A stretch of DNA of 64,000 nucleotides from Dehalococcoidia bacterium (GCA_963663895.2 CAXXRD010000001.1:736001-800000), one strand, 5' to 3'. Positions 14,087-27,023 are shown, counted from the stretch's first letter. Notes: a model not told the origin generated them from the letters alone. Numbers and translations: made by a program.

Positions 14087-15793
14087 CTATCTTCCCGTGC
14101 CTGATTCGGCATCGGGGTGCCGCGGCGACGGGCGCAGACGGGGACCCGGATCCGGCGGCTCGCGCCACTCTTCCTGTTTGAGCAGAAAGTACTCGAAGGC
14201 GTCGGCCAGCGCCAGCCAGGAGGCCTCGATCACGTCGGTGGAGGAGCCGACGGTGTTCCAGATGTGCTCGCCGTCGGTGGATTCGATGAGGACGCGCACC
14301 TTGGCCTCGGTCCCGGCGGCCGCGTCGAGGATGCGGACTTTGTAGTCGAGGAGGTGCATGCGGTCGAGCGCCGGGTAGGCCTCGCGCAGGCCCTTGCGCA
14401 CGGCGCGGTCGAGCGCGTTGACGGGCCCGTTGCCCTCGGCGGCGGTCTGGAAGAGCTGGCCGGCAACGCCGACCTTGGCCATCGCTTCGGCGAGCATCTC
14501 GTTGCGCCCCCCGTTCCCGGCCGCCCCGCTCCCGGCTTCCCCATCGGCGAGATCGGCCGTGTGGCGGCGGCGCTCCACGATGAGGAAGTCCTCCAGCTCG
14601 AAGGGAGCCGTGTAGTTGGGGCGGGCGCGGTGGGCGAGCAGCTCGAAGGAGGCCTCGGCGCCCTCGTACTGGTAGCCGCGGCTCTCCATCTGCTTGACGC
14701 GCTCGAGCAGGGCCCTGGTCTCTTCGGCCGTCAGGGGCAGGTCCAAGCCGCGCTCTTGCAGCTTGTAGGAGATGTTGCGCTGCCCGGAGAGCTCGCTGAC
14801 GAGGACCCGGCGGTCGTTGCCGACGGCGGCGGGCTTCGCGTGCTGGTAGGTGTCCTCGTCCTTGACGACGGCGGCGACGTGGTAGCCGGCCTTGTGGGCG
14901 AAGGCGCTGGCGCCGACGTAGGGGGCCTGCGGATCCAAGGGGAGGTTGGCGAGCTCGGCGATGTAGCGGGAGAGCTCGGTGAGGCGGGCGAGCTGCGCGT
15001 CGCCGACGACGGGAATGCCCATCTTGAGCTGGAGCGTGGCGAGGATGGTGGCGAGGTTGGCGTTGCCGCAGCGCTCGCCGTAGCCGTTGAAGCAGCCTTG
15101 GACCTGCACCACGCCAGCGGAGACGGCGGCGAGGCTGTTGGCGACGGCGAGGCCGGCGTCGTTGTGGACGTGGATGCCGAGTTGCGCCTGAGGGACGGCC
15201 CCCTTGGCGGCCTCGATCGCTTGCACGAGGTCGGGGGTGAGGGCGCCGCCGTTGGTGTCGCAGAGGATGAGCGTGTCGGCGCCGGCGCGGGCGGCCGTGC
15301 GGAGGGTTTGCAGAGCGTAGTCCGGGTCGTCGCGGAAGCCGTCGAAGAAGTGCTCGGCGTCGAAGCCGACCTCGCGGCCGAGCGCTTTGAAGTGGGCGAC
15401 GGAGTCGGCGATCATGGCGAGGTTCTCCTCGCCGCTGGTTTCGAGGGCGACGCGGACCTGATAGCGGCTGGCCTTGCCGACGAGGGTGACGACGGCCGTG
15501 CCGGCGTCCGCGATCGCCTGGATGTTGGGATCGTCCTGCACCTGGAGCCCGGCGCGGCGGGTGCCGCCGAAGGCGACGACCTTGGCCTGCTTGAGGGGGG
15601 CGCGCTTGATCTCTTGGAAGAAGAGGCGGTCCTTCTCGTTGGAGCCGGGGAAGCCGCCCTCGATGTAGTGGACGCCGATCTCGTCGAGGCGGTGCGCGAT
15701 GGCGAGCTTGTCCTCGAGGGAGAAGGCGATGCCCTCCATCTGGGAGCCGTCGCGGAGGATGGTGTCGTAGAGGAGCACACGCGGAGCGTTCAC
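14087..15793 (-). CDS. cimA: Citramalate synthase
   Basis: DTILRDGSQ, IEGGFPGSN, FDAEHFFDG, GYGERCGN and the C-terminal regulatory domain (GNGPVNALD, DYKVRIL). Confidence 0.92.
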   Translation of the reverse strand: MNAPRVLLYDTILRDGSQMEGIAFSLEDKLAIAHRLDEIGVHYIEGGFPGSNEKDRLFFQEIKRAPLKQAKVVAFGGTRRAGLQVQDDPNIQAIADAGTAVVTLVGKASRYQVRVALETSGEENLAMIADSVAHFKALGREVGFDAEHFFDGFRDDPDYALQTLRTAARAGADTLILCDTNGGALTPDLVQAIEAAKGAVPQAQLGIHVHNDAGLAVANSLAAVSAGVVQVQGCFNGYGERCGNANLATILATLQLKMGIPVVGDAQLARLTELSRYIAELANLPLDPQAPYVGASAFAHKAGYHVAAVVKDEDTYQHAKPAAVGNDRRVLVSELSGQRNISYKLQERGLDLPLTAEETRALLERVKQMESRGYQYEGAEASFELLAHRARPNYTAPFELEDFLIVERRRHTADLADGEAGSGAAGNGGRNEMLAEAMAKVGVAGQLFQTAAEGNGPVNALDRAVRKGLREAYPALDRMHLLDYKVRILDAAAGTEAKVRVLIESTDGEHIWNTVGSSTDVIEASWLALADAFEYFLLKQEEWREPPDPGPRLRPSPRHPDAESGTGR

Positions 15794-15879
15794 GGTCTCA
15801 GTCCTTCATGGGTAGGAGCAGCGGGTACGGGGCCGGATGCGGAAGCGCCTCGCTCCGAGGCGTCCGGCGGGAGCGCGCG

Positions 15880-15960
15880 CTAGCAGCCGATCGCATCCGC
15901 CGCGTGATGAGGCGCGGCGGACGAGAACCTCTCGGGATAGGCGTGCGTGCGTGCGTGCAT
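15880..15960 (-). promoter_or_regulatory. Putative cimA leader peptide, 26 aa (MHARTHAYPERFSSAAPHHAADAIGC)
   Basis: Hand translation; only BCAA codon is Ile24; TAGGCT lies 9 nt before the ATG; alternative hairpins present. Confidence 0.6.
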
Positions 15961-16090
15961 TATGGATCCAGCCTAGCGGGCGTTCCACCGCCGGACAATC
16001 GGGGAGAGCCGCTCAAAAATTGAGGCTGCGGCCGAATGATTACCGTCAACGATGAGTGAAGGCCAGCGTGACTAGACCCACCCGACCCGC

Positions 16091-25244: not shown

Positions 25245-26779
25245 GTGGAGGCGCGGGTGGCTTTGACGGCGCCTTGGTGGTAGCGGTTGATGGCGTTCAT
25301 ATAGGCCTGGGCGCTGGCGACGAGGATATCGGTGTCCGAGGCGCGGCCGGTGTAGGTGCTGTCGTCGATGTCGATGCGGATGGTGACCTCGCCCTGGGCG
25401 TCGACGCCCTCGGTGATGCTTTGGACGGAGAATTCGACGAGGCGGTCCTGCATGCCGGTGATCTGGCGGATGGTGCGGTAGACGGCGTCGACGGGGCCGG
25501 TGCCGGTTTCGGCGGCGGTGTGCGTGCGGCCGTCCGGGCCGCGCAGCGTGATGCTGGCGGTGGGGGTGGCGCTGGTACCGGTGGTGACGTTGAGGGATTC
25601 GAGGTGCCAGGCCTCCGCGACTTGGCCGAGGCGATCGGACATGATGGCCTCGAGGTCGCGATCGTCGACGACGGTCTTCTTATCGGCGAGCTCCTGGAAC
25701 TTGAGGAAGGCGCTGGCCAGCTCCGCCGTGTCGAGCTCGTAGCCGAGGTCTTCGATGCGGGCTTTGAAGCCGGCGCGGCCGGAGAGCTTGCTGAGGACGA
25801 ATTGGCTACCCTCGCTCCAGCCGACGGCCTTGGGGTCCATGATCTCGAAGTTCTCGCGCAGCTTGACGACGCCGTCCTGGTGGATGCCGGACTGATGGCG
25901 GAAGGCGTTGAGGCCGACGATGGCCTTGTTGGGCTGGACGTGCATGCCGGAGTAGTCGGCGACCATGCGGGAGAGCGGGACGAGGTGCTCGGTGCTGATG
26001 CCGCACTCGACATCGAGGAAGTCGGGGCGGGTCTTGATGCCCATGACGATCTCTTCAAGGGAAGCGTTGCCGGCGCGCTCGCCGATGCCGTTGATGGTGC
26101 ACTCGATCTGGCGGGCGCCGGCGGCGGCGGCGGCGAGGCTGTTGGCGGTGCTGAGGCCGAGATCGTTGTGGCAGTGAACGGAAAGGGTGACGGCGTCGAC
26201 GCCCTTGACGTTCTGGAGGATGCCGTCGATGAACTCGGCGAACTCCTCCGGGATAGCGTAGCCGACGGTGTCGGGGATGTTGATGGTAGTGGCGCCGGCC
26301 GCGATGCACTCGCTGAGGAGGCGATAGGTGAAGTCGGGGTCGGAGCGGGTGGCGTCCATGGGGCTGAACTCGACGTTGGAGACGTAGCCCTTGGCCTTGG
26401 CGACCATCTCGCGCGCTTGCTGGAGCACTTCCTCGCGGCCGGAGCGGAGCTGGTGCGCGATGTGAATGTCGGAGCTGCTGATGAAGACGTGGAGGCGGGG
26501 GTCCTCGGCGCCTTGGATGGCGGCCCACCCTTGCTCGACATCGTTGGGGACGGCGCGGCAGAGGGAGGCGATGGAGGTGCCGCGGACTTCGTTGGCGATG
26601 CGGGCGACGGCGTCGAAGTCGGCGGGACTGGCGGCGGCGAAGCCGGCCTCGATGCAGTCGACGTTGAGCTTCTCCAGCATCTTGGCGATCTGGAACTTCT
26701 CGTCGTTGGTGAAGGAGACGCTGGCGGATTGCTCGCCGTCTCGGAGCGTAGTGTCGAAGATCTTGACTCGGTCAGGCAT
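25229..26779 (-). CDS. leuA: 2-isopropylmalate synthase
   Basis: [34 protein letters not shown] and regulatory domain GPVDA. Confidence 0.96.
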
Positions 26780-26880
26780 GGCGGGGCTCCTCCATGGGGA
26801 ACGCGGGGCAGAGAAAGAAAGGGGGCGGCGAGGCAGCGGTTCGCTGCAACCAGCGCCTCGTGTGGCTGATCGCCCGGGAG

Positions 26881-26961
26881 TTAGCGCCCAAGGACGCCAC
26901 GGGCCGAGGCAGCCCGCGGGTCGATCCCTCCGTCGCGCGTGGGACGCGGATAGCCGTTCAT
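26881..26961 (-). promoter_or_regulatory. Putative leuA leader peptide, 26 aa (MNGYPRPTRDGGIDPRAASARGVLGR)
   Basis: Only Leu codon (CTT) is at position 24; CATAAT lies 9 nt before the ATG; downstream hairpin followed by a pyrimidine tract. Confidence 0.6.
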
Positions 26962-27023
26962 CGTGGAATCATTATGCCGGAGTTCGCGCCGTCTGCCTAC
27001 GGGGCCGGGAAAGCCGCGGGCGA

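Follow-up and report, generated by a model that had tools for sequence, protein, structure and literature searches.

Two genes of branched-chain amino acid synthesis, cimA (citramalate synthase) and leuA (2-isopropylmalate synthase), lie on the minus strand of a 64,000-nucleotide (nt) stretch of DNA from a Dehalococcoidia bacterium of the phylum Chloroflexota (GCA_963663895.2, CAXXRD010000001.1:736001-800000; hereafter the window, from whose first letter all coordinates are counted). Each is preceded by a short upstream open reading frame (uORF) that is conserved among related genomes and looks translated. We consider it probable, at roughly 70%, that these leaders work by ribosome-mediated sensing of charged tRNA, that is, as near-leaderless attenuators for branched-chain synthesis. 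This reading is drawn from comparison of sequences, because the frame and its cognate codon are conserved, relatives carry extra cognate codons, and a third leader of this kind precedes ilvB. Leader-peptide attenuation is textbook knowledge in proteobacteria and is known in Actinobacteria and Firmicutes. In the open-access literature we found it described neither in Chloroflexota nor, as an isoleucine leader peptide, before a citramalate synthase gene.

The two leaders and their genes comprise the following features.

26881..26961, minus strand: leuA leader uORF, 26 codons plus TAA, peptide MNGYPRPTRDGGIDPRAASARGVLGR; supported by covariance model R1 and in-frame ATGs
26890..26892, minus strand: Leu codon CTT (codon 24 of 26), proposed to do the sensing; CTY in 42/42 leaders
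26971..26976, minus strand: -10 hexamer CATAAT, ending 9 nt before the uORF ATG; from the sequence and a promoter scan
26994..26999, minus strand: -35-like hexamer TAGGCA of the putative leuA leader promoter; from a promoter consensus scan
25229..26779, minus strand: leuA, 2-isopropylmalate synthase; NF002086, 730.8 bits against a cut-off of 532
15880..15960, minus strand: cimA leader uORF, 26 codons plus TAG, peptide MHARTHAYPERFSSAAPHHAADAIGC; conserved frame
15889..15891, minus strand: Ile codon ATC (codon 24 of 26), proposed to do the sensing; ATY in 22/22 leaders
15970..15975, minus strand: -10-like hexamer TAGGCT, ending 9 nt before the uORF ATG; read from the sequence
15993..15998, minus strand: -35-like hexamer TTGTCC, 17 nt before the -10 box of the putative cimA leader promoter; found by eye
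14087..15793, minus strand: cimA, citramalate synthase; TIGR00977, 648.6 bits against a cut-off of 450

Loci upstream of cimA and leuA were taken from 40 related genomes and their small open reading frames (ORFs) were listed. The leuA uORF is present in all 23 loci of the family that reach the leuA start (one further locus ends at a contig edge) and was not seen in the small-ORF listing of six loci from other families. A covariance model of the leuA leader, R1, matches 62 of 65 genomes of the family, once per genome and in all 10 genera. It found no match in 144 genomes from 62 other families of the class; 7 of 151 genomes matched overall, all of them members of the same family.

Forty-two leuA leaders were aligned to R1. 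The Leu triplet, 4 nt past a hairpin described below, is CTC in 30 and CTT in 12, and never CTG or TTG; in this genome CTT accounts for 5.1% of Leu codons and CTG is the commonest at 43% (codon usage from 447 long ORFs). The uORFs are 21-26 codons long, with the stop (TGA in 35, TAG in 4, TAA in 3) placed three codons (30 leaders) or five codons (12 leaders) after the Leu triplet, and a -10 hexamer stands 6-9 nt before the start in 41 of the 42. When all ATGs 4-11 nt behind the -10 box were collected with no frame assumed, 45 of 45 proved to be in frame with the Leu triplet; they fall into seven length classes at distances of 51-69 nt, all multiples of 3, a result expected about once per 700 tries for unrelated lengths. 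Just one leader (L035, from genome G003) has no -10 box beside the start. Its CATAAT is some 40 nt upstream and a GAGGGG of its own precedes the ATG, which makes it a leadered form of this uORF, so translation there seems to be maintained by other means. In the window itself the promoter scan returned TAGGCA-17-CATAAT with 9/12 matches, 1 site against 0.1 expected, and TAGGCA recurs in the leuA leaders of genera g9, g5, and g10. No purine-rich Shine-Dalgarno (SD) sequence can be read between CATAAT and the uORF ATG.

The cimA uORF occurs in 19 of 24 loci of the family, in 9 of its 10 genera, and in G039 of another family; the five family loci that do not have it all belong to genus g6, where cimA abuts another gene. 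A second covariance model, R2, built on the cimA leader, added G003 as well as G079 and G122 of two other families, each match lying directly upstream of cimA. Weaker R2 matches (E 0.0007-0.1, in genus g6 and other families) were rejected, as the 31 fetched loci hold no cimA and look like chance. All 22 cimA leaders, drawn from three families, have the triplet ATY (ATT in 18, ATC in 4; alignment A7), with flanking codons that vary, and an ORF runs in the ATY frame in all 20 leaders that have the hairpin; uORF length is 21-34 codons. ATT is thus favored in 18 of the 22 although it is rare in this genome, at 8.6% against 89.9% for ATC, these figures being the usage of this genome only.

Start signals are less uniform before cimA. 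TAGGCT, TAGTCT, TAAGCT, or TACGCT is found 6-9 nt before the uORF start in genera g1 and g7, and SD-like sequences precede the ATG in g9 and others; in the window no purine-rich SD can be read between TAGGCT and the ATG. The same -35 sequence, GATTGTCC, is present in two genus mates; a strict promoter consensus scan rejected TTGTCC-17-TAGGCT. In leaders of genera g7 and g3 (L014-L019) cimA starts about 40 nt past the uORF stop with little or no SD (ACAACCTCACCCATG), a layout that raises the possibility of reinitiation or coupling in those genera.

An initial annotation, made on this one genome, had described the two 81-nt ORFs with their peptides and the endings AIGC* (cimA) and VLGR* (leuA), the two hexamers exactly 9 nt before ATGs that have no SD, and Ile as the only branched-chain residue of the cimA leader; all of this is as described, and the assignment of the downstream genes to cimA and leuA agrees with their family matches. 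Its count of a single Leu (CTT) in the leuA leader is correct, but Ile13 and Val23 are also present and went unmentioned. It had further argued that the parallel between the leaders exceeds chance, with which the R1 matches, the in-frame ATGs, and the invariant ATY agree. Other particulars do not extend to relatives, in which neither the shared 26-amino-acid length nor the Tyr-Pro near the N-terminus is kept, and the Gly-X-stop ending gives way to LVA*, LGGRR*, LLPRA*, LLLP*, IAA*, IPRP*, or I* (G079). Equal length, Tyr-Pro, and the exact Gly-X-stop are best read as coincidence in this genome.

The proposal that a fixed cognate codon sets specificity survives in altered form: the codon is matched to the pathway and lies 4 nt past the hairpin and 1-5 codons before the stop (9 in one cimA leader), but position 24 is not kept. 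A single cognate codon is likewise what this genome has, but leuA leaders of some genera carry two or three consecutive Leu codons (LL, LLL) and cimA leaders of some genera additional Ile codons; "one codon" is therefore the state here and not a rule of the family. Such extra codons are expected if selection acts on the cognate codon. The comparison of upstream regions in relatives, which the initial annotation had put forward as a test, accordingly shows conserved uORFs with varying lengths and endings. That interpretation is partly supported: it seems right in its core of conserved, pathway-matched, ribosome-read leaders, and it over-reads the details of a single genome.

Both uORFs enclose a predicted bipartite hairpin, P1, which involves the cognate codon.

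26885..26935, minus strand: leuA P1, with H1 pairing 26919-26912 to 26904-26897, a middle part GAG:CUU, and a base CG:CG; RNAalifold
26926..26931, minus strand: SD-like GGAGGG inside the leuA uORF; its GAG (26930-26928) pairs with the Leu codon
15887..15935, minus strand: cimA P1, with H1 pairing 15921-15913 to 15904-15896 and a lower stem CCGA (15935-15932):TCGG (15890-15887); RNAalifold
15928..15933, minus strand: SD-like GAGAGG inside the cimA uORF; GAGAGG(T), AAGGAG, GGGAG, or GGGGGG in relatives

The shared layout consists of an SD-like purine motif, 6-10 nt, a GC hairpin of 8-9 bp, 4 nt, and the cognate codon. In neither uORF does a start codon follow the motif at SD spacing, and in three cimA leaders from outside the family the motif reads (G)AGGTGA. 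R1 and R2 each match only their own leader in this genome, so the likeness between the leuA and cimA leaders is one of architecture and not of sequence.

For leuA, RNAalifold pairs the GAG of the purine motif with the CUY codon (57:97, 58:96, and 59:95 in alignment A2), with a further stem below. The same three pairs in alignment A4 are GC 29/GU 9, AU 30/GU 12, and GC 40 of the 42 leaders. Across the 42-leader alignment, which was fitted to R1 and hence to a model that favors this structure, 95.6% of cells are paired and 6 of 14 pairs have changed on both sides; none of 500 shuffles reaches the score and slid controls stay at or below 50%. Positions 1-2 of the codon are always CU, even though its 5' partner can be GAG, GGG, or AAG. 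Changes in the hairpin arms are compensatory even though residues change, with Pro/Gly becoming Arg/Arg between genera; since this compensation alters the peptide, the conserved "RAxxARG" reflects the RNA and not the peptide.

In cimA, each of the nine H1 pairs is present in 15-19 of 19 distinct rows, with CG>UA and GC>CG exchanges. In the lower stem, predicted by RNAalifold on seven leaders, the second and third bases of the Ile codon, together with GG, pair with bases immediately 5' of the purine motif. There, CCGA:UCGG is replaced by UCAA or CUAA:UUGG, and a change from ATC to ATT is matched by a partner change from G to A, all of this on few events. In several genera the bases that would pair with ATY vary or are missing, and ATY is constant. 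Hairpin loops differ by 3 nt between leaders, in keeping with a translated frame, and the leaders have no conserved unpaired bases able to form a binding pocket. A pseudoknot between loop and 3' flank was tried for the cimA leader and dropped, the complementarity being confined to L005, L012, and L026.

A third leader stands before ilvB.

30532..30651, minus strand: ilvB leader uORF, 39 codons, ending ..RLRLGIPVVVPTGL*; from the sequence and other genera

It has three consecutive rare Val codons, GTA GTT GTA, together with Ile and Leu; GTA and GTT make up 3.8% and 6.2% of Val codons in the same 447 ORFs. Other genera also have endings of the type V(A/V)VP(G/T)G ahead of ilvB, and in many cases a -10 box precedes the ATG by 9 nt. 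All three leaders carry an amino acid that matches the pathway of the gene behind them: Ile for cimA, Leu for leuA, and Val/Ile/Leu for ilvB. A genome-wide scan for further leaders combining a -10 box and a short ORF with codon runs gave 203 candidates, none convincing. The stop codon of the ilvB uORF sits in the loop of a small hairpin, CCGGC..GCCGG.

These observations suggest a mechanism, which we offer as a hypothesis. Each leader would be transcribed from its own promoter and translation would begin at the 5' end or a few bases from it, making the uORF leaderless or nearly so. The ribosome would first melt the GC-rich P1 and, four bases past its upper stem, would meet one cognate codon (Ile AUY before cimA, Leu CUY before leuA) located 1-5 codons before the stop. 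Were the charged tRNA scarce, the ribosome would wait at this codon, over the end of the uORF, and would keep hold of P1's 3' strand. The E site and exit channel would be filled by the hairpin's 3' arm while the codon is in the A site, so that P1 could not re-form, and its purine-rich 5' strand, with the SD-like motif, would stay free for the duration of the stall. A ribosome three codons on, at the stop, would allow the hairpin to begin closing; if tRNA were plentiful, it would terminate and leave, and P1 would close again. Expression of cimA or leuA would be expected to rise on stalling.

How a stall would be read out is a more tentative matter, and bears on the RNA between uORF and gene.

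15794..15879, minus strand: C-rich, G-poor spacer from the uORF stop to cimA; C/G 1.52
15832..15868, minus strand: GC-rich hairpin past the cimA uORF stop, without a U tract behind it; minimum-free-energy folds
26829..26860, minus strand: GC-rich hairpin T past the leuA uORF, kept across genera with different sequences; folds
26810..26828, minus strand: pyrimidine tract CCGCCCCCTTTCTTTCTCT after hairpin T; read from the sequence

A GC hairpin follows the uORF stop in every genus, with differing sequences. C exceeds G in 42 of 42 spacers, some of the cimA spacers including a few N-terminal codons where gene starts were extrapolated. Within a comparison set of 488 upstream windows of this genome, derived from rough gene calls, the three leaders fall within the highest 2.7-6.1% by C/G and the highest 0.4-5.3% by pyrimidine content; the cimA window at -95..-15 is in the top 6.1% for C/G, and the window holding the leuA pyrimidine tract is in the top 0.4% for pyrimidine content. 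The genome encodes rho (590.3 bits against a cut-off of 509.45). The composition that Rho loading needs and the factor itself are thus both present; that composition is necessary and is no proof of a rut site. A well-known attenuator that joins a uORF to Rho is tnaC. Under a relaxed terminator rule (a stem followed by at least 6 U in 10 nt), 16 of 42 leuA leaders score, this genome included. The SD of leuA, as read from the sequence, is GGAGGAG at 26793-26787, and that of cimA is GAAGGA at 15807-15802, inside the spacer. In leuA leaders of genus g6 (e.g., L045 and L178) a direct repeat, TTCCGACCAC, occurs twice 10-45 nt before leuA; the second copy adjoins the leuA SD and contains a UUCC able to form a small conserved hairpin with GGAG.

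Our preferred read-out, possible though doubtful, is that the spacer would switch expression off unless prevented by the ribosome or by the freed purine strand; Rho loading, the hairpin with its pyrimidine tail as a terminator, or masking of the ribosome-binding site would be candidates for that off signal. We regard as unlikely the fuller version, in which the leaders form a modular sensor of "hairpin - 4 nt - one codon - stop" with Ile and Leu swapped on the same scaffold, and a stall frees the 5' strand of P1 to pair across the ribosome with the pyrimidine-rich spacer, thereby blocking Rho loading or unmasking the ribosome-binding site.

Several results weigh against tRNA sensing, above all against a defined switch. 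What the sequences show is the uORFs and their frame, the cognate codon, P1, the C-rich spacers, and a rho gene; the stall, the switch, and its sign are all inferred here. Predicted accessibility of the downstream SD hardly changes with the ribosome absent, at the cognate codon, or at the stop (leuA 0.32/0.36/0.37, cimA 0.47/0.49/0.45). Duplexes between the cognate-codon region and the downstream ribosome-binding site are no better for cognate than for non-cognate combinations (mean energies -12.9 and -12.9; shuffled -12.0, standard deviation 4.0), those between the 5' strand of P1 and the spacer match composition-preserving shuffles (mean z 0.08), and anti-SD pentamers in the spacers number 108 against 94.6 expected. 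Hairpin T forms with the ribosome held at the Leu codon in five of five constrained folds and no antiterminator was found in them, GC-rich RNA offering many alternative pairings; because T persists, a plain scheme in which the stalled ribosome blocks a terminator fails on paper, and if T were a terminator its persistence in these models would give the wrong sign. A strict terminator scan found no stem-plus-U site in either the cimA or the leuA leader of this genome. Folded singly, both leaders are no more stable than shuffles (z +0.20 and +0.83). Because P1 pairs the sensing codon, structure may account in part for the codon's conservation and for the lack of CTG. One codon would be a weak kinetic signal beside the codon runs of classical attenuators, and the sampled genomes are related, representing 10 genera and not 62 independent samples. 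Among public sequencing runs, one metatranscriptome contained 7% of the sampled words, as short contigs, and a comparison with four runs gave no signal on where transcripts start or end or on their levels. Programmed frameshifting at the hungry codon was rejected as a read-out, as it would need +1 in some genomes and -1 in others and no slippery site is present; in several leuA leaders an alternative frame is open as far as a TGA that overlaps the leuA start.

Four other explanations have to be set against tRNA sensing. That both ORFs are chance open frames in GC-rich intergenic DNA has a negligible probability: open frames are common at 67% G+C, and the equal length and the Tyr-Pro are indeed not conserved, but the R1 matches in 62 of 65 genomes, CTY in 42 of 42, ATY in 22 of 22, and the 45 in-frame ATGs contradict it. 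A more serious case can be made for P1 as an RNA-only element, whether a protein-binding site, an RNA polymerase pause, or a stability hairpin, with a frame that is incidental or translated without sensing and CUY/AUY kept through pairing with the purine motif. The triplets are paired in the consensus structure, the arms compensate even where Pro/Gly gives way to Arg/Arg, and no stalling-dependent switch could be modelled; a protein-binding role has been argued on similar grounds, in the available text, for the actinobacterial LEU element (PMC1262725). We nevertheless hold this to be quite unlikely, as frame, start, and stop are kept far beyond what a hairpin needs, CU persists in the codon through changes of its partner, ATY is constant where partner bases vary or are missing, the amino acid fits the pathway in all three leaders, and a binding pocket of conserved unpaired bases is lacking.

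The uORFs might instead be translated only to load ribosomes for the downstream gene, through termination-reinitiation or coupling, or to protect the mRNA. The short distance and poor SD in g7 and g3 would suit such a role, and short leader genes have been proposed, in the part of the source available to us, to raise translation through reinitiation (PMC4833913). In the window, though, both genes have their own SD and lie 86 nt (cimA) and 101 nt (leuA) past the uORF stop, and loading alone leaves unexplained the invariant gene-specific cognate codon, the additional cognate codons of relatives, and the rare Val codons before ilvB; we give it a low probability. Very improbable is a TnaC-like arrest peptide, which would respond to free Ile or Leu inside the ribosome tunnel and give no readout of tRNA charging. 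Short leaders (21-31 residues) with a conserved C-terminal part (..RAxxARGxL.., ..AAxxAAxAI..), a key residue beside the stop, a C-rich spacer after it, and the presence of rho would all fit, yet the conserved residues are those that the hairpin arms encode and they change with compensatory base changes, and a sensor of abundance would activate a biosynthetic gene at high levels of its product, which has the sign reversed unless stalling is repressive.

Sensing of charged tRNA, which we prefer, places the leaders near several known systems and identical to none of them; in kind they come closest to the leaderless polycysteine short ORFs of mycobacteria and to classical leader peptides. The classical attenuators are the enterobacterial trp, his, leu, and ilv leaders. 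Like these, and like the Corynebacterium ilvBNC uORF as far as the available text describes it (PMC10272879, PMC11857589), the leaders are short, carry cognate codons within a few codons of the stop, and have GC-rich hairpins behind them. They differ in that the cimA and leuA leaders here have a single codon (one to three in relatives), with only the ilvB leader matching the classical codon run, its Val codons having Ile and Leu nearby; in that the ribosome would reach the codon in the 3' strand, after passing the hairpin, whereas a classical 1:2 hairpin has it in the 5' strand; and in that no terminator/antiterminator pair was identified and the start is probably leaderless.

In mycobacteria, leaderless short ORFs with cognate codons at their 3' ends act as attenuators (bioRxiv 10.1101/834739). 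The accessible portion of that report describes a polycysteine "ribulon" (Canestrari et al., bioRxiv 10.1101/834739) that shares with the present leaders an unannotated short ORF at or near the 5' end of the transcript (a position that is predicted here) before a biosynthetic gene, cognate codons at the 3' end of that ORF, and several loci under one amino-acid signal. Set against the same text, our leaders have one codon and not a run, concern Ile, Leu, and Val, and occur in Chloroflexota; their codon pairs with an SD-like motif inside the uORF, and pairing with the downstream SD is unsupported here. A structural parallel is the actinobacterial LEU element, in which, by the description available (Seliverstov et al. 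2005, PMC1262725), Leu codons of a uORF before leuA are paired with SD-type purines in a compact structure. In that element the Leu codons form a run whose partner is the SD of leuA, and the pairing is part of a pseudoknot (PMC1262725). Our leaders, from another phylum, have a single CUY, predicted to pair with an SD-like motif internal to the uORF, and their hairpin is a simple bipartite one.

With Rho-dependent uORF attenuators such as tnaC, and toiL of topAI-yjhQ in the text available to us (PMC12121999), the leaders would share a ribosome held at the uORF end (proposed here), C-rich, G-poor RNA after the stop, and the presence of rho; in contrast to those, the stall proposed here would come from a hungry codon and not from arrest by peptide and ligand or by a drug. 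Another parallel is the T-box riboswitch, which likewise stands before amino-acid genes and reads one specifier codon for a single amino acid; the leaders differ from it in their length of only about 170-180 nt, their conserved ORF, and their lack of the T-box sequence. T-box RF00230 gave no match in 14000-29000 at E values up to 10, and an Rfam scan of the same interval at E up to 10 returned three weak matches, none in a leader and all far below their gathering scores. Elsewhere in the genome there is a T-box-like match (G000 contig C1:399717-399977) of 85.8 bits, slightly below the gathering score of 93.

If the proposal is true, the leaders would show attenuation pared down to a single hairpin and a single codon in a near-leaderless ORF of some 21-26 codons, or as many as 34 before cimA. 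The leaders would provide a natural swap of specificity on one scaffold, which makes the number of codons needed and the transmission of a stall testable. They also point to small ORFs and regulatory RNA left unannotated because gene callers overlook them in these genomes, mostly those of uncultured organisms. The cimA leader, in particular, complements the protein family match with a regulatory argument for a role of this gene in Ile synthesis.

The gene order on the minus strand is ilvB (30420-28741), ilvN, ilvC (28025-27024), a 245-nt gap, leuA (26779-25229), leuC, leuD, and leuB; an McrBC pair (19116-16091) follows leuB, and after a further gap comes cimA (15793-14087). This McrB/McrC-like restriction pair scores 171.5 and 109.8 bits, each below its own cut-off. 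Since it splits cimA from the ilv-leu cluster, cimA here has its own promoter and leader. No biosynthetic IlvA (threonine dehydratase) scored above its cut-off in this genome, whose assembly (2.37 Mb in 5 contigs, 67% G+C) is 91% complete; CimA is therefore probably the main route to Ile, and probably its committed step, which fits the missing IlvA match. The best named relatives of CimA, at 63-66% identity, come mostly from Dehalococcoidia metagenome-assembled genomes and from Tepidiformaceae/Tepidiforma. Four long ORFs of the window, 13054-14181 (plus strand) and 20357-21259, 21446-22222, and 23133-24506 (all minus strand), have no NCBIfam match at E values up to 0.001; some overlap known genes and may be spurious frames in GC-rich DNA, 73 ORFs of at least 80 amino acids being found in 18 kb of the window at 67% G+C.

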